The notes beneath the pieces were generated by a model. That model did not search any database and was not told where the DNA came from. It worked only from the letters and a program-made list of their open reading frames with translations. DNA of 64,000 bases from Escherichia phage vB_EcoM_Ozark. The position numbers and the translations under genes were made by a program. This document shows positions 53,098 through 63,359 of this stretch, piece after piece. Where the stretch lies: the sequence record NC_054927.1. One strand, given 5' to 3'. The stretch's first letter is position 1. Every line of letters begins with the position of its first letter.

Positions 53098-56000
53098 ATG
53101 GCCGAGATTAAAAGAAAGTTCAGAGCAGAAGATGGTCTGGACGCAGGTGGTGATAAAATAATCAACGTAGCTTTAGCTGATCGTACCGTAGGAACTGACG
53201 GTGTTAACGTTGATTACTTAATTCAAGAAAACACAGTTCAACAATATGATCCAACTCGTGGATATTTAAAAGATTTTGTAATCATTTATGATAACCGCTT
53301 TTGGGCTGCTATAAATGATATTCCAAAACCGGCAGGAGCTTTTAATAGCGGGCGCTGGAGAGCATTACGTACAGACGCAAACTGGATTACGGTTTCATCT
53401 GGTTCATATCAATTAAAATCCGGTGAAGCTATTTCGGTTAATACTGCAACTGGAAATGACATCACGTTTACTTTACCATCTTCTCCAATTGATGGAGATA
53501 CTATCGTTCTCCAAGATATTGGAGGAAAACCTGGAGTTAACCAAGTTTTAATTGTAGCTCCAGTACAAAGTATTGTAAACTTTAGAGGTGAACAAGTACG
53601 TTCAGTACTAATGACTCATCCAAAGTCACAGCTAGTTTTAATTTTTAGTAATCGTCTGTGGCAAATGTATGTAGCTGATTATAGTAGAGAAGCTGTAGTT
53701 GTAACACCAGCGAATACTTATCAAGCGCAATCTAATGATTTTATCGTGCGTAGATTTACTTCTGCTGCACCAATTAATGTCAAACTTCCAAGATTTGCTA
53801 ATCATGGCGATATTATTAATTTCGTTGATTTAGATAAACTGAATCCACTTTATCATACAATTGTTACTACATACGATGAAACGACTTCAGTACAAGAAGT
53901 TGGAACTCATTCCATTGAAGGCCGTACATCGATTGACGGTTTCTTGATGTTCGATGATAATGAGAAATTGTGGAGATTGTTTGACGGTGACAGTAAAGCA
54001 CGTTTACGCATTATAACGACTAATTCTAATATTCGTCCAAATGAAGAAGTCATGGTGTTTGGAGCGAATAACGGAACAACTCAAACAATTGAGCTTCAGC
54101 TTCCTACTGATATTTCTGTTGGTGATACTGTTAAAATTTCCATGAATTACATGAGAAAAGGACAAACAGTTAAAATCAAGGCTGCGGGCGAAGATAAAAT
54201 TGCTTCTTCAGTTCAATTACTGCAATTCCCAAAACGCTCAGAATATCCGCCTGAAGCTGAGTGGGTTACAGTCCAAGAATTAGTTTTTAATGGTGAAACT
54301 AATTATGTTCCGGTTTTACAACTTGCTTATATAGAAGATTCTGATGGAAAATACTGGGTTGTACAGCAAAACGTTCCAACTGTAGAAAGAGTTGATTCTT
54401 TAAATGATTCTACTAGAGCAAGATTAGGCGTAATTGCTTTAGCTACACAAGCTCAAGCTAACGTCGATTTAGAAAATTCTCCTCAAAAAGAATTAGCAAT
54501 TACTCCAGAAACGTTAGCTAATCGTACTGCTACAGAAACTCGTAGAGGTATTGCAAGAATAGCAACTACTGCTCAAGTGAATCAGAACACCACATTCTCT
54601 TTTGCTGATGATATTATCATCACTCCTAAAAAGCTGAATGAAAGAACTGCTACAGAAACTCGCAGAGGTGTCGCAGAAATTGCTACACAGCAGGAAACTA
54701 ATACAGGTACTGATGATACTACAATCATTACTCCTAAAAAGCTTCAAGCTCGCCAAGGTTCTGAGTCATTATCTGGTATTGTAACTTTTGTATCTACTGC
54801 AGGTGCTACTCCAGCTTCTAGCCGTGAATTAAATGGTACGAATGTTTATAATAAAAACACTAATAATTTAGTTGTTTCACCTAAAGCTTTGGATCAGTAT
54901 AAAGCTACTCCAACGCAGCAAGGTGCAGTAATTTTAGCAGTTGAAAGTGAAGTAATTGCTGGACAAAGTCAGGAAGGATGGGCAAATGCTGTTGTAACAC
55001 CAGAAACGTTACATAAAAAGACATCAACTGATGACAGAATTGGTTTAATTGAAATTGCTACGCAAAGTGAAGTTAATACAGGAACTGATTATACTCGTGC
55101 AGTCACTCCTAAAACTTTAAATGACCGTAGAGCAACTGAAAGTTTAAGTGGTATAGCTGAAATTGCTACACAAGTTGAATTCGACGCAGGCGTCGACGAT
55201 ACTCGTATCTCTACACCATTAAAAATTAAAACCAGATTTAATAGTACTGATCGTACTTCTGTTGTTGCTCTATCTGGATTAGTTGAATCAGGAACTCTCT
55301 GGGACCATTATACCCTTAATATTCTTGAAGCAAATGAGACACAGCGTGGTACACTTCGTGTAGCTACACAGGTTGAAGCTGCTGCAGGAACATTAGATAA
55401 TGTTTTAATAACTCCTAAAAAGCTTTTAGGTACTAAATCTACCGAATCGCAAGAAGGTGTTATTAAAGTTGCAACTCAGTCTGAAACTGTGACTGGAACG
55501 TCAGCAAATACTGCTGTATCTCCAAAAAATTTAAAATGGATTGTGCAGAGTGAACCTACTTGGGCAGCTACTACTGCGATAAGAGGTTTTGTTAAAACTT
55601 CATCTGGTTCAATTACATTCGTTGGTAATGATACAGTCGGTTCTACCCAAGATTTAGAACTGTATGAGAAAAATAGCTATGCGGTATCACCATATGAATT
55701 AAACCGTGTATTAGCAAATTATTTGCCATTAAAAGCAAAAGCTGTAGATAGTAATTTATTGGATGGTCTAGATTCATCTCAGTTCATTCGTAGGGACATT
55801 GCGCAGACAGTTAATGGTTCACTAACCTTAACCCAACAAACGAATCTGAGTGCCCCTCTTGTATCATCTAGTACTGCTGCGTTTGGTGGTTCAGTTTCGG
55901 CAAATAGTACATTAACTATTTCTAATACTGGAACGGCAACTCGTCTGATTTTTGAGAAAGGACCTCAAACTGGAACTAACCCAGCGCAGACGATGACTAT

Positions 56001-56967
56001 CAGAGTTTGGGGAAATCAGTTTGGTGGTGGATCAGATACAACACGTTCTACTGTATTTGAAGTTGGTGATGAAACATCTAATCACTTTTATTCTCAACGT
56101 AATAAAGCTGGTAATATTACGTTTAGCATTAATGGTACTGTGATGCCAATAAATGTTAACGCTTCCGGTTCATTGAATGCGAATGGCGTAGCAACATTTG
56201 GTAGTTCAGTTACAGCCAATGGTGAATTCATTAGCAAGTCTGCAAATGCTTTCAGAGCAATAAACGGTGATTATGGATTCTTTATCAGGAATGATGGCGG
56301 CAGTACATATTTTATGCTTACTGCATCTGGTGATCAGACCGGTGGATTTAATGGATTACGTCCATTATCAATTAATAATCAATCCGGTCAAGTCACAATT
56401 GGTGAAAGCTTAATCATTGCCAAAGGTGCTACTATAAATTCAGGCGGTTTAACTGTTAACTCGAGAATTCGTTCTCAGGGTACTAAAACATCTGATTTAT
56501 ATACCCGTGCGCCAACATCTGATACGGTAGGATTCTGGTCAATTGATATTAACGATTCAGCCACTTATAACCAGTTCCCGGGTTATTTTAAAATGGTTGA
56601 AAAAACTAATGAAGTGACTGGGCTTCCATACTTAGAACGTGGCGAAGAAGTTAAATCTCCTGGTACACTGACTCAGTTTGGTAACACACTTGATTCGCTT
56701 TACCAAGATTGGATTACTTATCCAACGACGCCAGACGCGCGTACCACTCGCTGGACACGTACATGGCAGAAAACCAAAAACTCTTGGTCAAGTTTTGTTC
56801 AGGTATTTGATGGAGGTAACCCTCCTCAACCATCTGATATCGGTGCTTTACCATCTGATAATGCCACAATGGGTAATCTTACTATTCGTGATTTCTTACG
56901 AATTGGTAATGTTCGCATTATTCCTGACCCAGTGAATAAAACTGTTAAATTTGAATGGGTTGAATAA
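53098..56967 (+). CDS. 34: long tail fibre proximal subunit
   Basis: 1289-aa ORF, same length as T4 gp34. Confidence 0.93.
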   Translation: MAEIKRKFRAEDGLDAGGDKIINVALADRTVGTDGVNVDYLIQENTVQQYDPTRGYLKDFVIIYDNRFWAAINDIPKPAGAFNSGRWRALRTDANWITVSSGSYQLKSGEAISVNTATGNDITFTLPSSPIDGDTIVLQDIGGKPGVNQVLIVAPVQSIVNFRGEQVRSVLMTHPKSQLVLIFSNRLWQMYVADYSREAVVVTPANTYQAQSNDFIVRRFTSAAPINVKLPRFANHGDIINFVDLDKLNPLYHTIVTTYDETTSVQEVGTHSIEGRTSIDGFLMFDDNEKLWRLFDGDSKARLRIITTNSNIRPNEEVMVFGANNGTTQTIELQLPTDISVGDTVKISMNYMRKGQTVKIKAAGEDKIASSVQLLQFPKRSEYPPEAEWVTVQELVFNGETNYVPVLQLAYIEDSDGKYWVVQQNVPTVERVDSLNDSTRARLGVIALATQAQANVDLENSPQKELAITPETLANRTATETRRGIARIATTAQVNQNTTFSFADDIIITPKKLNERTATETRRGVAEIATQQETNTGTDDTTIITPKKLQARQGSESLSGIVTFVSTAGATPASSRELNGTNVYNKNTNNLVVSPKALDQYKATPTQQGAVILAVESEVIAGQSQEGWANAVVTPETLHKKTSTDDRIGLIEIATQSEVNTGTDYTRAVTPKTLNDRRATESLSGIAEIATQVEFDAGVDDTRISTPLKIKTRFNSTDRTSVVALSGLVESGTLWDHYTLNILEANETQRGTLRVATQVEAAAGTLDNVLITPKKLLGTKSTESQEGVIKVATQSETVTGTSANTAVSPKNLKWIVQSEPTWAATTAIRGFVKTSSGSITFVGNDTVGSTQDLELYEKNSYAVSPYELNRVLANYLPLKAKAVDSNLLDGLDSSQFIRRDIAQTVNGSLTLTQQTNLSAPLVSSSTAAFGGSVSANSTLTISNTGTATRLIFEKGPQTGTNPAQTMTIRVWGNQFGGGSDTTRSTVFEVGDETSNHFYSQRNKAGNITFSINGTVMPINVNASGSLNANGVATFGSSVTANGEFISKSANAFRAINGDYGFFIRNDGGSTYFMLTASGDQTGGFNGLRPLSINNQSGQVTIGESLIIAKGATINSGGLTVNSRIRSQGTKTSDLYTRAPTSDTVGFWSIDINDSATYNQFPGYFKMVEKTNEVTGLPYLERGEEVKSPGTLTQFGNTLDSLYQDWITYPTTPDARTTRWTRTWQKTKNSWSSFVQVFDGGNPPQPSDIGALPSDNATMGNLTIRDFLRIGNVRIIPDPVNKTVKFEWVE

Positions 56968-56975
56968 GAGGTATT

Positions 56976-58091
56976 ATGGAAAAATTTATGGCAGAGTTTG
57001 GACAAGGATATGTCCAAACGCCATTTTTATCGGAAAGCAATTCAGTAAGATATAAAATAAGCATAGCGGGTTCTTGCCCGCTTTCTACAGCAGGGCCATA
57101 CGTTAAATTTCAGGATAATCCTGTAGGAAGTCAAACATTTAGCGCAGGACTTCATTTAAGAGTTTTTGACCCTTCCACCGGAGCATTAGTTGATAGTAAG
57201 TCATATGCTTTTTCGACTTCAAATGACACTACATCAGCTGCCTTTGTTAGCTTCATGAATTCTTTGACGAATAATAGACTTGTTGCTATATTAACTAACG
57301 GAAAGGTTAATTTTCCTCCTGAGGTAGTATCTTGGTTAAGAACCGCCGGAACGTCTGCTTTTCCATCTGATTCTATATTGTCAAGATTTGACGTATCATA
57401 TGCTGCTTTTTACACTTCTTCTAAAAGAGCTATTGCATTAGAGCATGTTAAACTAAGTAATAGAAAAAGCACAGATGATTATCAAACTGTATTAGATGTA
57501 GTATTTGATAGTTTAGAAGATGTTGGAGCGACAGGATTTCCTAAAAGAACATACGAAAGCGTTGAGCAATTTATGTCAGCTGTTGGTGGAACTAATAACG
57601 AAATTGCGCGTTTACCGACTTCATCCGCGATAAGTAAACTCTCTGATTATAATTTAGTTCCTGGTGATGTTCTTTATCTTAAAGCTCAGTTATATGCTGA
57701 TGCGGATTTACTTGCGCTTGGAACTACAAATATATCTATCCGTTTTTATAATGCATCAAATGGATATATTTCCTCGACACAAGCTGAATTTACCGGACAA
57801 GCTGGGTCATGGGAATTAAAGGAAGATTATGTAGTTGTTCCAGAAAACGCTGTAGGATTTACGATATATGCACAAAGAACTGCTAAAGCTGGCCAAGGTG
57901 GCATGAGAAATTTAAGCTTTTCTGAAGTATCAAGAAACGGCGGTATTTCAAAACCTGCTGAATTTGGCGTCAACGGTATTCGTGTTAATTATATCTGTGA
58001 ATCCGCTTCACCTCCGGATATAATGGTACTTCCTACGCAAGCATCATCTAAAACTGGTAAAGTGTTTGGGCAAGAATTTAGAGAAGTATAA
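56976..58091 (+). CDS. 35: long tail fibre hinge (knee) protein
   Basis: 371-aa ORF following gene 34. Confidence 0.85.
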   Translation: MEKFMAEFGQGYVQTPFLSESNSVRYKISIAGSCPLSTAGPYVKFQDNPVGSQTFSAGLHLRVFDPSTGALVDSKSYAFSTSNDTTSAAFVSFMNSLTNNRLVAILTNGKVNFPPEVVSWLRTAGTSAFPSDSILSRFDVSYAAFYTSSKRAIALEHVKLSNRKSTDDYQTVLDVVFDSLEDVGATGFPKRTYESVEQFMSAVGGTNNEIARLPTSSAISKLSDYNLVPGDVLYLKAQLYADADLLALGTTNISIRFYNASNGYISSTQAEFTGQAGSWELKEDYVVVPENAVGFTIYAQRTAKAGQGGMRNLSFSEVSRNGGISKPAEFGVNGIRVNYICESASPPDIMVLPTQASSKTGKVFGQEFREV

Positions 58092-58153: not shown

Positions 58154-58819
58154 ATGGCTGATTTAAAAGTAGGTTCAACAACCGGAGGCTCTGTCATTTG
58201 GCATCAAGGAAATTTTCCATTGAATCCAGCCGGTGACGATGTACTCTATAAATCATTTAAAATATATTCAGAATATAATAAACCACAAGCTGCTGATAAC
58301 GATTTCGTTTCTAAAGCTAATGGTGGTACTTATGCATCAAAGGTAACATTTAACGGTGGAATTCAAGTTCCGTATGCTGTAAACAACACAAACCCATGCG
58401 GTGTTTATCCAGGTAACGGTGATAATGCTACTTTTGCTGTAGCAAATATCGATATTGTTTCGTGGAATGGTATTGGTTTTAAATCATCACAAGGTTCAGC
58501 AGCTCGAACTGTTGTAATTAATGCACGTAATGGTGATATTAGTACAAAAGGCGTTGTGTCGGCAGCAGGTCAAGTAAGAAGTGATGCGGCTGCTCCTATA
58601 GCAGCGAATGACCTTACTAGAAAGGACTATGTTGATGGAGCAATAAATACTGTTACGGCAAATGCAAACTCTAGGGTGCTACGGTCTGGTGACACCATGA
58701 TAGGTAATTTAACAGCGCCAAACTTTTTCTCGCAGAATCCTGCATCTCAACCTTCACACGTTCCACGATTTGACCAAATCGTAATTAAGGATTCTGTTCA
58801 AGATTTCGGCTATTATTAA
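58154..58819 (+). CDS. 36: long tail fibre distal connector
   Basis: 221-aa ORF, same length as T4 gp36. Confidence 0.88.
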
Positions 58820-58827
58820 GAGGACTT

Positions 58828-61800
58828 ATGGCTACTTTAAAACAAATACAATTTAAAAGAAGCAAAACCGCAGGTGCACGTCCTGCTGCTTCAGTATTAG
58901 CCGAAGGTGAATTGGCTATAAACTTAAAAGATAGAACAATTTTTACTAAAGATGATTCAGGAAATATCATCGATTTAAGCATTTCTACTGGCGGTAATAT
59001 CAGTGGTAATATCACTCAAACTGGTGATTATACACAGACTGGAAAATTTAATTTAATTGGTCCGCAAATTGTAGCAAGCGGTGGATATATTGAGTTTAAT
59101 TATCGTACTACTGGAAGTGGGGCTTGGTCCGGTCAACATACTGCGAAAGCTCCAATTTTTGTAGATTTAAGCTCAGCTACTTCCACATCTGAATATAATC
59201 CTATAATTAAACAGCGCTTTAAAGATGGAACTTTTTCATTAGGTACTTTAGTTTCTGAAGGTTCGTTGAAGATTCATTATATCAATGAATCTGGCGATTC
59301 GAAATATTGGACGTTTCGACGTGACGGCGGATTTACTGTTGACGGTGGAGGTTTAGCAGTATCAGGAGGTAGTATAACTACATCTGGAAATATTGCAGCT
59401 ATTGGAAATATTACTTCGCCTCAGATTAATACTAAAAATATTATTTTAGATACAAAAGCATTTGGACAATACGATTCGCAATCATTAGTTCAATATGTTT
59501 ATCCTGGAACAGGCGAAGAAAATGGTATAAACTATCTTCGTAAAGTTCGAGCTAAATCAGGCGGTACAATTTATCATGAATTAGCTTCTGCGCAAACCGG
59601 AAAAAGTGATGAACTTTCTTGGTGGACTGGTAATACAGCCGTTAATAAACAAATGGGTCTTCGTAATGATGGGGCTTTAGTATTACGACGCTCACTCGCA
59701 ATTGGTACAATTACAACAGATGAAAACATTAATAACTACGGCTCCGCTGGAGCAATGGGCGAATGTTATATAGTTATCGGTGATGCATCAACAGGCTTAT
59801 CATACAAAAAAACTGGAGTATATGATTTAGTTGCTAGTGGTCTTTCTTTAGCATCTATTACTCCTGATAGTTTCCGTAGTACCCGTAAAGCGATTTTTGG
59901 TCGTTCCGAGGACCAAGGTACAACATGGATTATGCCTGGAACCAACGCCGCGTTTTTATCGGTTCAAACACAAGCTGATGAAAACACTGCTGGAGACGGC
60001 CAGACGCATATTGGCTATAACTCAGGCGGAAAAATGAACCACTATTTCCGTGGTAAAGGCAAAACTAATATTAATACTCAAGAAGGCATGGAAGTTAACC
60101 CGGGTATTTTGAAATTGGTAACTGGCTCTAATAATGTAATGTTTTATGCTGATGGCGGTATTACATCTGTTAAGCAGCTTTCAATATATAATGGCATATA
60201 TTTAGCAGCTAATAATTCTACTGCTGGGCTAACATTCGCTCCAACTACTACAATTGATGGCACTAAGCAAATTTTGTGGGAAGGCGGTACTCGTGCTGGT
60301 CAGAATAAAAGCTATGTAACTGTTAAAGCATGGGGTAATTCATTTAACGCATCTGGCGATCGTAATCGTGAAACGGTTTTTGAAGTAGCTGATGGACAAG
60401 GATATTATTTTTATTCACAGCGTGTGGCTCCAAGTGGCTCTGAAACTACTGGGCCTGTTGTAACCCAGTTCAATGGACAAGTTAATGCTAGAGGAAGTAT
60501 TATTACTGACGGAAGTTTTAAAGTTAATGGATTAAGCACTTTAGTCGGTAATGTTACCATGTCTAATGGTTTGTTTGTCCAAGGTGGTTCTTCTATTACT
60601 GGACAAGTAAAAATTGGTGGAACTGCTGATGCATTAAGAATTTGGAATGCCGAATACGGTGCTATTTTCCGTCGCTCAGAAACAGCATTACATATTATCC
60701 CGACTCCTAAAGATGCCGGTGAAAGTGGTGGAATAAGTAATCTCCGCCCACTTAGTATTAGTCTTAATAATGGTATGGTACAAATGCGCCATTCTGTTAC
60801 GTTAGGCGATGATGGCGCTGGCGGTAATATGATTACTGTGGACAACGATACCAAACTTGTTGTTGTTACTAGTAATAGTCGCATTTCTCCTAATTACCGT
60901 ATGCAGGTAGGACAAGCAGCTTATATTGATGCTGAATGTACTGACACAGTTCGCCCGGCTGGTGCAGGGTCTTTTGCTTCACAAAATAATGAAAACGTTC
61001 GTGCTCCATTCTATATGAATATTAATCGTACAGATACAAGTACTTACGTTCCTATTTTGAAACAACGATATGTCCAAGGAAACAGTTGTTATTCTCCAGG
61101 AACTCTAATTAACGGCGGTAACTTCAGAGTTCATTATCATGAAGGCGGCGATGGCGGTTCGACTGGCGCTATTATAAAGGATTTAGGTTGGGAATTTAAC
61201 AAAAATGGTGATTTTATATCTCCTAAGCGTGTTTCTGCTGGTGGTTCAGTTTATTTAGGTACAGACGGCAATATTACAGGTGGTTCTGGCAATTTTGCTA
61301 ATTTAAACAGTACAATTGAATCACTTAAAACCGATATTGTATCGAGTTACCCAATCGGTGCTCCTATTCCATGGCCAACGGATACTCCTCCTGACGGTTA
61401 CGCTATTATGGAAGGCCAGACTTTTGATAAGTCTGCATACCCAAAATTGGCTATGGCTTACCCATCTGGCGTAATTCCAGATATGCGCGGGCAAACTATT
61501 AAAGGTAAACCAAGTGGTCGAGCTGTATTAAGCGCAGAAGCCGATGGTGTTAAGGCTCATAGCCATAGTGCATCGGCTTCAAGTACTGACTTGGGTACTA
61601 AAACTACGTCGAGTTTTGATTATGGTACTAAGACGACAAGTAGCTTTGACTATGGCACTAAGACTAGCAATACCACAGGTAACCACTCTCATACTGTAAG
61701 CGGTACTACGAGTTCTGCTGGTGCACACCAACATGCGCGCTCAGGTCCTCAGATACAAGCCGGCATACCCAATAACATATTCTATGACGGATATAATAGT

Positions 61801-62103
61801 GTAGGTGCAAACGCCAACGCTAAATTCACTGGAACCGTGAACGGTGCTACTGCAGGGTCGAATATAGCCAAAACTTCTTCAGACGGTGCTCATACTCATA
61901 CTTGGTCTGGTACTACAAGCACTACAGGTAACCATGCTCACACAGTAGGTATTGGTGCTCATACCCATACTGTAGGTATCGGTGCTCATACCCACACGGT
62001 AGCAATTGGCTCGCATGGTCATACTATCACTGTAAATAGTACAGGTAATACAGAAAACACGGTTAAAAACATTGCTTTTAACTATATCGTTCGTTTAGCA
62101 TAA
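58828..62103 (+). CDS. 37: long tail fibre distal subunit (receptor-recognising)
   Basis: 1091-aa ORF ending ...[10 protein letters not shown] with a C-terminal HxH array; longer than the 1026 aa recalled for T4 gp37. Confidence 0.9.
61594..61653 (+). repeat. tandem 30-nt coding repeat in gene 37 ([10 protein letters not shown] twice) with synonymous codon divergence
   Basis: Two adjacent units encode identical decapeptides but differ at about 10 of 30 nucleotides; a third degenerate unit follows. Confidence 0.7.
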
Positions 62104-62123
62104 GGAGAGGGGCTTCGGCCCCT
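62104..62123 (+). promoter_or_regulatory. split Shine-Dalgarno: GGAG, then 16-nt UUCG hairpin, then AUG of gene 38
   Basis: Reads UAAGGAG-AGGGGC-UUCG-GCCCCU-UCUAAAU-AUG. Confidence 0.6.
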
Positions 62124-62130
62124 TCTAAAT

Positions 62131-62682
62131 ATGAAAATATATCATTATTATTTTGACACTAAAGAATTTTACAAAGAAGAAAATTACAAACCGGTTAAAG
62201 GCCTCGGTCTTCCTGCTCATTCAACAATTAAAAAACCTTTAGAACCTAAAGAAGGATATGCAGTTGTATTTGATGAACGTACTCAGGATTGGATTTATGA
62301 AGAAGACCATCGCGGAAAACGAGCATGGACTTTTAATAAAGAAGAAATTTTTATAAGTGAAATTGGAAGCCCGGTTGGTATAACTTTTGATGAGCCTGGC
62401 GAATTTGATATATGGACTGATGACGGTTGGAAAGAAGACGAAACATATAAGCGAGTTTTAATTCGTAATAGAAAAATTGAAGAATTATATAAAGAGTTCC
62501 AAGTTTTAAATAATATGATTGAAGCTTCTGTCGCCAATAAAAAGGAAAAATTTTATTATAAAAACCTTAAGCGGTTCTTTGCTCTTTTAGAAAAGCATGA
62601 GCATTTAGGTGGTGAATTCCCTTCATGGCCTGAAAAAGAACGGAAACCTTGGTATAAGCGTTTATTCAAGCATTACGTATAA
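62131..62682 (+). CDS. 38: tail fibre assembly chaperone (T4-type gp38)
   Basis: 183-aa ORF starting MKIYHYYFDTKEFYKEENYKP; T4-type chaperone rather than T2-type adhesin. Confidence 0.88.
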   Translation: MKIYHYYFDTKEFYKEENYKPVKGLGLPAHSTIKKPLEPKEGYAVVFDERTQDWIYEEDHRGKRAWTFNKEEIFISEIGSPVGITFDEPGEFDIWTDDGWKEDETYKRVLIRNRKIEELYKEFQVLNNMIEASVANKKEKFYYKNLKRFFALLEKHEHLGGEFPSWPEKERKPWYKRLFKHYV

Positions 62683-62702: not shown

Positions 62703-63359
62703 ATGGCAGCACCTAGAATATCATTTTCGCCCTCTGATATTCTGTTTGGTGTTCTAGATCGCTTGTTCAAAGATAACGCTACTGGGAAGGTTCTTGCTTC
62801 CCGGGTAGCTGTCGTAATTCTTTTATTTATGATGGCGATTGTTTGGTATAGGGGAGATAGTTTCTTTGAGTACTATAAGCAATCAAAGTATGAAACATAC
62901 AGTGAAATTATTGAAAAGGAAAGAAATGCACGCTTTGAATCTGTCGCCCTGGAACAACTCCAGATAGTTCATATATCATCTGAGGCAGACTTTAGTGCGG
63001 TGTATTCTTTCCGCCCTAAAAACTTAAACTATTTTGTTGATATTATAGCATACGAAGGAAGATTACCTTCAACAATAACTGAAAAATCACTTGGAGGATA
63101 TCCTGTTGATAAAACTATGGATGAATATGCAGTTCATTTAAATGGACGTCATTATTATTCTGACTCAAAATTTGCTTTTTTACCAACTAAAAAGCCTACT
63201 CCCGAAATAAACTACATGTACAGTTGTCCATATTTTAATTTGGATAATATCTATGCTGGAACGATAACCATGTACTGGTATAGAAATGATCATATAAGTA
63301 ATGACCGCCTTGAATCAATATGTGCTCAGGCGGCCAGAATATTAGGAAGGGCTAAATAA
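62703..63359 (+). CDS. t: holin
   Basis: 218-aa ORF with one N-terminal TM segment (VAVVILLFMMAIVWY) and a large periplasmic domain. Confidence 0.88.
   Translation: MAAPRISFSPSDILFGVLDRLFKDNATGKVLASRVAVVILLFMMAIVWYRGDSFFEYYKQSKYETYSEIIEKERNARFESVALEQLQIVHISSEADFSAVYSFRPKNLNYFVDIIAYEGRLPSTITEKSLGGYPVDKTMDEYAVHLNGRHYYSDSKFAFLPTKKPTPEINYMYSCPYFNLDNIYAGTITMYWYRNDHISNDRLESICAQAARILGRAK

Follow-up and report, generated by a model that had tools for sequence, protein, structure and literature searches.

A TuIb/FelixPlatter-type gp37 tip with a predicted additional needle rung in Escherichia phage vB_EcoM_Ozark

The structure of the T4 gp37 tip (PDB 2XGF) was reportedly described by Bartual et al. 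in 2010, and its metal needle of His-x-His (HxH) motifs is said to have been known since then. T4 gp37 holds seven Fe bound by HxH motifs, H929 is an Fe ligand, and the D11 region spans residues 882-1009 (PMC6957217, PMC11705849). Six antiparallel strands make up the needle (PMC9659904), and the residues of the T4 head that bind OmpC and LPS have been described (PMC6957217, PMC5221442). The gene 37 tip of phage TuIb was sequenced in 1990 (X55191; Montag, Hashemolhosseini and Henning, J Mol Biol 1990), and the receptors of TuIb are listed as OmpC/LamB (PMC9659904). FelixPlatter (Bas40 of the BASEL collection) lost infectivity on an ompC mutant and regained it upon complementation (PMC8594841). 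Side tail fibre (Stf) tips from lambdoid E. coli and Shigella prophages also belong to the T4/lambda receptor-binding protein family (PMC9659904).

We analysed a 64,000-nucleotide stretch of Escherichia phage vB_EcoM_Ozark (NC_054927.1), hereafter the window, and the gene 37 that it carries. The explanation that best fits the whole, to which we give a probability of about 75%, is an OmpC-type TuIb/FelixPlatter tip that probably adopts a T4-like collar-needle-head fold, with one extra needle rung and repeats that stem from an old duplication.

Gene 37, its neighbours and its closest relatives

Gene 37 (58828-62103, plus strand) is a 1091-aa open reading frame (ORF) for the long tail fibre distal subunit with its C-terminal adhesin. 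Codon A910 starts at 61555, and the stop codon lies at 62101-62103. The interval 61555-62103 thus encodes the final 182 aa of gp37, and the first-pass annotation, made from the sequence alone, had both its coordinates and its frame right. It had also described a protein 65 aa longer than T4 gp37, which agrees with the lengths of 1091 and 1026 aa; the two proteins are 68% identical. Upstream of gp37 we observed ORFs of 1289, 371 and 221 aa in the gene order of T4 (NC_000866), and the gp36 ORF matched PF03903 (E = 1.4e-42). This places gp37 within a gp34-gp35-gp36-gp37 long tail fibre module. Downstream, gene 38 (62131-62682, plus strand) encodes a 183-aa protein with 181 residues as in T4 gp38. 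By this identity it is a T4-type assembly chaperone and not a T2/T6-type gp38 adhesin; T4 NC_000866 annotates the counterpart as tail fiber assembly.

The gp37 gene was 99.9% identical at the nucleotide level to those of Escherichia phages FelixPlatter and vB-Eco-KMB22, and 99.4-99.9% identical across FelixPlatter, teqhad, teqdroes, AdolfPortmann, KMB22 and R5505. Several phages of this group matched the last 804 nt at 100%; there is essentially no difference, and the Ozark gene is a member of the group. Over the same 804 nt, nucleotide identity to TuIb gene 37 was 99.3%, in a comparison that leaves out the N-terminal 820 aa, the TuIb record being partial. The TuIb protein differed at 3 of 267 residues, all in the head (F/I, T/S and N/S at aa 1000, 1002 and 1005). 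It has the same two decapeptides, eight HxH motifs and three 9-aa units described below, with gene 38 and then t following in the same order. The head domain fell into the same tip cluster as TuIb.

Judged from these alignments, 61555-62103 encodes the C-terminal receptor-binding tip of a Tequatrovirus gp37 of the TuIb/FelixPlatter allele. Its identity to FelixPlatter and TuIb makes OmpC the most likely receptor. The novelty implied by the first-pass annotation does not hold. This exact tip has been on record since the TuIb sequence of 1990, and the allele is an ordinary, already known one (TuIb; FelixPlatter/Bas40, OmpC).

Layout of the tip compared with T4

A phmmer search aligned aa 814-1091 with chain residues 2-242 of 2XGF (E = 7.2e-96), a structure that covers T4 gp37 residues 785-1026. 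The proposed likeness to the metal-binding needle of T4 is borne out by this homology, in which all seven HxH pairs of T4 (883/885, 915/917, 929/931, 966/968, 980/982, 989/991 and 998/1000) were matched in the Ozark protein, which has one further pair. At least eight such motifs had been proposed for the last ~180 residues. We counted exactly eight in the last 182 aa (H911/913, 953/955, 967/969, 1022/1024, 1036/1038, 1045/1047, 1054/1056 and 1063/1065), and all 16 histidines of this segment sit in these pairs. Shuffling of the same residues gave a mean of 1.3 HxH and a maximum of 7 (20,000 permutations), which rules out the eight motifs as a chance product of His-rich composition.

Collar, needle and head follow in the same order as in T4. 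The collar or knob domain (aa 839-909; 61342-61554, plus strand, as are all features below) corresponds to T4 D10, residues 811-881. It was recognised from the 2XGF alignment and from Pfam PF07484, Collar (aa 844-891, E = 2.3e-11, 43.9 bits vs a cut-off of 24); its limits and those of the C-terminal strand were taken from PMC6957217. The outgoing needle arm begins with the first HxH, H911-S-H913 (61558-61566), aligned to T4 H883/H885. Two identical decapeptides follow (aa 923-932 and 933-942; 61594-61653) where T4 has only one, and then a degenerate third unit (aa 943-952; 61654-61683), which is the last outgoing unit in all homologues. The outgoing 14-aa His-box module (61684-61734) runs from the second HxH (H953/955) to the third (H967/969) and aligns with T4 H915/917 to H929/931. 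The head, or receptor-binding tip domain, is of the TuIb type (aa 970-1021; 61735-61890).

The chain then enters the returning 14-aa His-box module (61891-61941), from the fourth HxH (H1022/1024) to the fifth (H1036/1038), which shares 9 of 14 residues with the outgoing module. Three 9-aa units carry HxH 6-8 (aa 1040-1066; 61945-62025), two of them VGIGAHTHT and the last VAIGSHGHT; T4 has two units. For phage teqhad, GenBank lists the counterpart of 61940-62002 as a repeat_region. The C-terminal strand returns to the collar domain (aa 1075-1091; 62050-62100) and corresponds to T4 1010-1026, with 100% nucleotide identity over aa 1072-1091. Both sets of tandem peptide repeats that had been noted, the decapeptide pair with its degenerate third copy and the nonapeptides, were recovered. 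Tandem Repeats Finder placed a repeat of 30-nt period at 61587-61666 (2.7 copies, 74% match) and another of 27-nt period at 61939-62002 (2.4 copies, 86% match). The identical sequence is present in many independent phage genomes, and the repeats are therefore not an assembly artefact of the window.

The tip is 37 aa longer than that of T4, with 10 aa added to the outgoing arm, 18 to the head (15 and 3) and 9 to the returning arm. The remaining 28 aa (net) of the surplus over T4 gp37 lie farther upstream; the N-terminal third of the protein is also divergent from T4. Alignment with T4 thus confirmed a genuine repeat expansion on both arms, with one extra outgoing decapeptide and one extra returning HxH nonapeptide, and eight HxH motifs against seven. 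The suggestion that the receptor-binding tip may differ from T4 was also correct, since the head is 18 aa longer than the T4 head and only 19-50% identical to it. The flanks at aa 862-932 and 1045-1091 are identical or near-identical to T4, as is gp38. At the nucleotide level, identity to T4 was 92-100% outside aa 922-1044 and the sequence was divergent inside, with the borders of the block lying within repeats. Both extra units fall inside this divergent cassette, which is flanked by sequence common with T4.

The Stf tips were 57-67% identical to the Ozark tip. They share the collar, decapeptide units, His-box modules and 9-aa HxH units, and both two-rung and three-rung needles (rungs are defined below) occur among them. 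They differ in fibre shaft, phage type and heads, and the collar motif has one more residue (KGKPASG vs KGKPSG). In some Stf tips the 14-aa modules are missing and the HxH count is 5 or 6.

Synonymous divergence of the decapeptide copies

The two decapeptide copies (61594-61623 and 61624-61653) differed at 8 of 30 nucleotides (27%), all synonymous and spread over 6 of 10 codons. The earlier description of copies alike in protein and diverged in nucleotides holds, but its figure of about a third was slightly high. Selection for the protein repeat, as had been proposed, agrees with what we found: the copies encode the same amino acids with randomised synonymous sites, and conservation of the unit extends across the family.

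It had further been proposed that the codon differences are themselves adaptive and protect a needed repeat against recombinational loss (or slippage). When codons for the decapeptide are drawn twice and independently from gene 37 codon usage, the two sequences are expected to differ at 7.1 +/- 2.1 nt (P(>=8) = 0.42). The observed 8 differences match this expectation, and therefore no excess divergence needs explaining. All 16 distinct two-copy homologues showed 4-11 differences per 30 nt, in most of them with amino acid differences too, which is the pattern of an old duplication. The two VGIGAHTHT copies in the same needle differed at only 3 of 27 nt (89% identity, with 14-nt identical runs in common), yet these repeats are kept in nearly all relatives. 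On the other side, 56 phage records all carry the 30-nt repeat in the same number of copies. In addition, a T-even metagenome contig (L004) is short of exactly one 27-nt unit between identical flanks and retains both 30-nt units, so that the less diverged repeat is the collapsed one; this sole supporting case is a single contig and may be an assembly collapse. We consider selection against recombinational loss distinctly unlikely.

An old duplication constrained at the protein level is enough to account for the synonymous pattern, and the nucleotide divergence probably represents the randomised synonymous state of such a duplication held by protein-level selection. As the orthologue of the single T4 copy, copy 1 and copy 2 tied at 5 differences each. 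Copy 2 differs at only 2 nt from its counterpart, copy 2, in L005, but the local rise to 84% nucleotide identity spans just 15 codons, a stretch too short to support a mosaic ancestry.

Matched needle arms across the family

We compared 189 unique complete homologous tips, 188 of which were scorable for arm match. The length of the proximal outgoing arm rose with the number of 9-aa gaps on the returning arm: 22 aa with one gap, 32 with two (94 tips), 41-42 with three (84 tips), 52 with four (6 tips), 62 with five and 73 with six. These values fit outgoing length = 12.1 + 9.96n for n = 1-6 returning 9-aa HxH steps (r = 0.99), and 1 of 188 tips was mismatched. The 14-aa His-box modules were matched as well, with none on either arm in 81 tips, one on each in 106 and two on each in 2; unmatched modules were never seen. 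Because the 189 sequences are related by descent, P-values for these correlations overstate independence. For the proximal arms, T4 has 32 aa against 14+9+9 = 32, and the Ozark tip has 42 against 14+9+9+9 = 41.

Published T4 contacts (G921-F970 and H929-G964; PMC6957217) give residue sums of 1891-1893. If these two contacts are extended along the arms as a plain 1:1 antiparallel pairing, the T4 decapeptide 895-904 would lie opposite residues 988-997, between HxH 989/991 and H998. In the Ozark register (sum 1985-1987), decapeptides 1, 2 and 3 would lie opposite HxH segments 1054-1063, 1045-1053 and 1036-1043.

Since the arms change together across the 189 tips, the extra repeats are best read as one added rung of the needle that carries an eighth metal site. 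The tip would fold, with help of the adjoining gp38 chaperone, into a trimeric collar-needle-head structure like 2XGF. Each chain would run out along the needle to the head and back antiparallel, and at each HxH the three chains together would bring six histidines to one axial metal (Fe) site. A rung would consist of one outgoing 10-aa unit (G-T-K-x-T-S-S-F-D-Y) facing one returning 9-aa unit (V-x-I-G-x-H-x-H-T). The Ozark needle would then have three rungs against two in T4, giving an eighth metal site, a needle ~2.5-3 nm longer and a larger, different head. Both the in-register extension by the extra units and metal binding by the eighth HxH are predicted from the sequence.

The co-variation could instead reflect genetic linkage only, if needle and head are swapped as one cassette and the copy numbers travel together without structural matching. 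The cassette borders within repeats and the 92-100% identity outside them fit such an exchange. The title of Tetart 1998, as cited in PMC3157838, refers to an exchange of adhesin specificity in T-even phages through recombination between conserved motifs. Because the extra units lie in one divergent cassette, its exchange and co-inheritance do contribute to the co-variation. As the whole explanation, linkage would need repeated independent changes on both arms to place six copy-number states on one line, and it would have to account for a second, unrelated 14-aa module pair that is always matched. The tip family of Ozark itself is found on both two-rung and three-rung needles, and the repeats are recombination-prone, yet only one scorable tip is mismatched. 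The T4 contacts moreover set the units face to face. We regard linkage alone as very unlikely. The mismatch in L004, with two decapeptides and only two 9-aa gaps, means that a mismatched needle may be tolerated. Among 56 phage records, the length of the three-rung cassette was constant down to ~85% nucleotide identity.

It is less probable still that the extra units form loops or enlarge the head, leaving the needle no longer and the eighth HxH without metal. In favour of this reading, the head is already 18 aa larger than that of T4, and an AlphaFold2 monomer of aa 813-1091 (53-sequence alignment), for a chain expected to form an intertwined trimer, gave a mean pLDDT of 54 and a pTM of 0.28, with an uninformative needle (pLDDT 40-55, no secondary structure). 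Against loops, the extra units repeat T4 needle units almost perfectly and lie proximal to the 14-aa modules, not beside the head. Key positions (G, F, D, Y, H) were 97-100% conserved, with G and H invariant in 243 returning units and F, D and Y at 97-100% in 149 outgoing units. The near-equal increments of 10 and 9 aa on opposite arms also suit an extended antiparallel pair.

No statement of the rung rule was found in the papers searched. Tetart 1996 reportedly described duplications bounded by His boxes. For the window itself the importance is small, as this gp37 allele is well represented and experimentally characterised, and the rung rule is a modest by-product. It would apply to a widespread receptor-binding family that includes both the long fibres of T-even phages and the side fibres of lambdoid ones. 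A tentative and rather unlikely extension is that the T4/lambda-type needle is a modular ladder of quantised length, with 4-10 metal sites, that gains and loses matched pairs (10/9-aa units and 14-aa modules), and that its length is adaptive and tunable. As a design rule, any change in the length of one arm would call for a matching change in the other, in steps of 10 aa outgoing with 9 aa returning, or of 14 aa on each. Should experiments bear the rule out, it would help fibre engineers to locate chimeric junctions and length changes that the fibre is likely to tolerate, and the metal content per fibre would be predictable from sequence alone. If the ladder proposal is true, products of single-arm slippage, L004 among them, would be transient intermediates or ones with partial function, and needle length would set the reach of the head through LPS, O-antigen or capsule to the porin.

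Identity of the gp37 tip

We found a T-even long tail fiber module on the + strand of the window, in the same gene order as in T4: gp34 (53098-56967), gp35 (56976-58091), gp36 (58154-58819; Pfam Phage_T4_gp36), gp37 (58828-62103; 1091 aa), gp38 (62131-62682; 183 aa) and holin t (62703-63359). The C-terminal tip of gp37 (61555-62103) is in the gene's frame, with A910 as its first codon and the stop codon as its last. The 27 nt that separate the gp37 stop from the gp38 start hold a C(UUCG)G tetraloop hairpin (62106-62126, GGGGC-UUCG-GCCCC; MFE -15.6 kcal/mol, z = -2.55), which overlaps the GGAG preceding gene 38. Hairpins of this kind are well known from T4 intercistronic regions.

The last 182 residues of gp37 contain exactly eight HxH motifs, in which 16/16 histidines of the segment are paired. 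Shuffling these residues 20,000 times gave a mean of 1.3 motifs and never eight. Tandem Repeats Finder returned a 30-nt period (61587-61666, 2.7 copies) and a 27-nt period (61939-62002, 2.4 copies). The count, the shuffles and the repeat search confirm the motifs and tandem repeats described in the first-pass annotation. The 14-aa His-box modules, absent from that description, form a further internal repeat: the outgoing (61684-61725, [14 protein letters not shown]) and returning (61891-61932, [14 protein letters not shown]) copies are homologous (9/14 identical) despite their antiparallel course in the needle. A ninth HxH (VHYHE; 61132-61140, aa 769-771) precedes the needle by ~140 residues and falls outside the collar. 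This motif is conserved in T4 (RVHYHGGGD), where the tally of seven needle Fe sites does not include it.

The tip matched the T4 gp37 crystal structure chain 2XGF (E = 7e-96), which supports the proposed homology to the T4 metal needle, and Pfam recognized the collar domain. The adjoining gp38 is identical to the T4 gp38 chaperone at 181/183 residues. By every testable membership criterion, the tip is that of a T4-type gp37 adhesin. The whole gp37 gene is 99.4-99.9% identical to those of FelixPlatter, FriedrichZschokke, AdolfPortmann, teqhad, teqdroes, KMB22 and others, and several of these phages match it at 100% over the last 804 nt. Over the same 804 nt, phage TuIb (X55191, 1990; genes 37, 38 and t) shows 99.3% identity; its tip protein differs at three residues, all in the head. 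The TuIb-type needle-head cassette (61570-62020) is present at ≥80% coverage in 56 phage records, and the T4-type tip at ≥80% coverage in 24, mostly T4 itself. From this near-identity and these records, the tip is a known, common allele of the TuIb type. FelixPlatter (Bas40) is OmpC-dependent by experiment (PMC8594841), and a repeat_region feature for the 27-nt repeats already stands in the GenBank entry of teqhad. The GiZh record (KT184311 / NC_054903) places an "attP prophage attachment site" and a "possible binding site of StbAB" inside gp37, which is odd for a virulent T-even tail fiber gene.

Differences from T4 and age of the repeats

The window gp37 exceeds its T4 counterpart by 65 aa, of which 37 aa lie in the tip: +10 from a second decapeptide, +9 from an extra HxH unit, and +15 and +3 in the head. 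The alignment thus supports both the repeat expansion and the different head that had been suggested. Most of the other 28 aa, which lie upstream, belong to a divergent N-terminal segment and an insertion of 11 aa near aa 652-662 (60781-60813). The N-terminal third (59008-59433, aa ~61-202) shares only 17-48% identity with T4 and carries several indels. Identity in the flanking shaft segments is 80-90%, so the shaft is mosaic too. In the tip, nucleotide identity to T4 is 92-100% over aa 892-921 and 1045-1091. The two sequences diverge over aa 922-1044, so repeats bound the exchangeable cassette, and both extra units lie inside it. Tetart's 1998 study reportedly describes conserved motifs as crossover points in this locus, an idea that a repeat-bounded cassette fits.

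The two decapeptides ([10 protein letters not shown]) had been described as identical in protein and different at about a third of nucleotide positions. The identity and the synonymous nature of the changes hold; the number of differences is 8/30 nt. The two VGIGAHTHT units differ at 3/27 nt. We compared these values with an expectation in which codons were drawn twice, independently, from gp37's own codon usage. The decapeptide result was as expected (7.1 ± 2.1 differences, P(≥8) = 0.42), and VGIGAHTHT had an expectation of 4.9 ± 1.5. All 16 distinct two-copy homologues carry 4-11 nt differences between copies, most also with 1-4 amino acid changes, and 25-45% of codons differ between T4 and the window in protein-identical orthologous stretches. 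The copies are therefore old and synonymously randomized, and strong peptide-level selection maintains them. The earlier proposal that divergence was selected to suppress recombinational loss is unsupported, and the data can be explained without any selection for divergence itself.

Matched needle arms across the family

The T4 needle domain D11 (residues 882-1009) binds seven Fe through HxH motifs, with H929 as one ligand (PMC6957217; PMC11705849), in a six-stranded antiparallel assembly with two strands per chain (PMC9659904). In a codon-threaded alignment, the T4 motifs fall at 883/885, 915/917 and 929/931 on the outward arm and at 966/968, 980/982, 989/991 and 998/1000 on the returning arm. 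Those of the window fall at 911/913, 953/955 and 967/969 outward, and at 1022/1024, 1036/1038, 1045/1047, 1054/1056 and 1063/1065 returning. Two inter-chain contacts published for T4 (G921-F970 and H929-G964; PMC6957217) imply an antiparallel register with i + j ~1891-1893. The T4 decapeptide (895-904) would then lie opposite 988-997, between HxH 989/991 and H998. With an equivalent register of 1985-1987, window decapeptides 1, 2 and the degenerate third would face returning HxH units 1054-1063, 1045-1053 and 1036-1043. We infer this unit-facing-unit placement from the two contacts, not from a structure. Arm lengths agree with it: 32 aa out and 14+9+9 = 32 back in T4, 42 out and 14+9+9+9 = 41 back in the window. 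Since the T4 needle measures ~150 x 25 Å by EM (PMC3004832), one 10-residue rung (an outgoing 10-aa unit facing a returning 9-aa HxH unit) should add roughly 2.5-3 nm.

We collected homologous tips from IMG/VR loci, a 90%-clustered protein collection and the 590 hits of a HMMER scan that exhaustively covered 1.84 billion representatives at 50% identity. HxH spacing in the 189 unique complete tips always followed one grammar, [12+10n] (14)m | head | (14)m (9)n, where n counts rungs and m the His-box modules per arm. Outgoing proximal lengths of 22, 32, 41-42, 52, 62 and 73 aa accompanied 1, 2, 3, 4, 5 and 6 returning 9-aa gaps (1, 94, 84, 6, 1 and 1 unique sequences). Outgoing length fitted 12.1 + 9.96n (r = 0.99), a correlation among mutually related tips whose P-values are not to be taken literally. 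The 14-aa modules were 0/0 (81), 1/1 (106) or 2/2 (2) out and back, never unmatched. Across 149 outgoing units, conservation is 100% for G, K and F and 97% for D/Y; across 243 returning units it is 100% for G and for both H. The window has n = 3, m = 1 and 8 HxH (a count shared by 41/189 tips), and T4 has n = 2, m = 1 and 7 HxH (72/189). The window's head family occurs on 2-rung (26 unique) and 3-rung (7 unique) needles. Two homologues, P0048 (10 HxH) and P0254, carry two 14-aa modules per arm; P0136 and P0218 have five and six returning steps, with outgoing arms of 62 and 73 aa.

The sole arm-length mismatch among 188 scorable tips was on a T-even metagenome contig (L004; IMGVR_UViG_3300030021_000020) that encodes gp37, a gp38 of 183 aa and a holin. 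Its tip (L004:2044-2310) is 84% identical to that of the window; both decapeptides are present, and precisely one 27-nt VGIGAHTHT unit is missing between flanks identical to the window. This looks like clean slippage between near-identical repeats, or assembly collapse. The deletion hits the less diverged repeat, which weakly favors the idea that such a repeat is the more fragile one (n = 1).

Six copy-number states on one line and a second, independently matched module pair make the co-variation of the arms hard to explain without a structural matching requirement. Genetic linkage also contributes, since the exchangeable cassette contains both extra units. Earlier work has noted in qualitative terms that gp37-like tips vary in length (PMC11990801); a matched 10/9 and 14/14 rule was not found in the literature searched, which excluded the primary structural paper. 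The window tip itself is already known, and its analysis yielded the rung rule as a modest side result open to testing.
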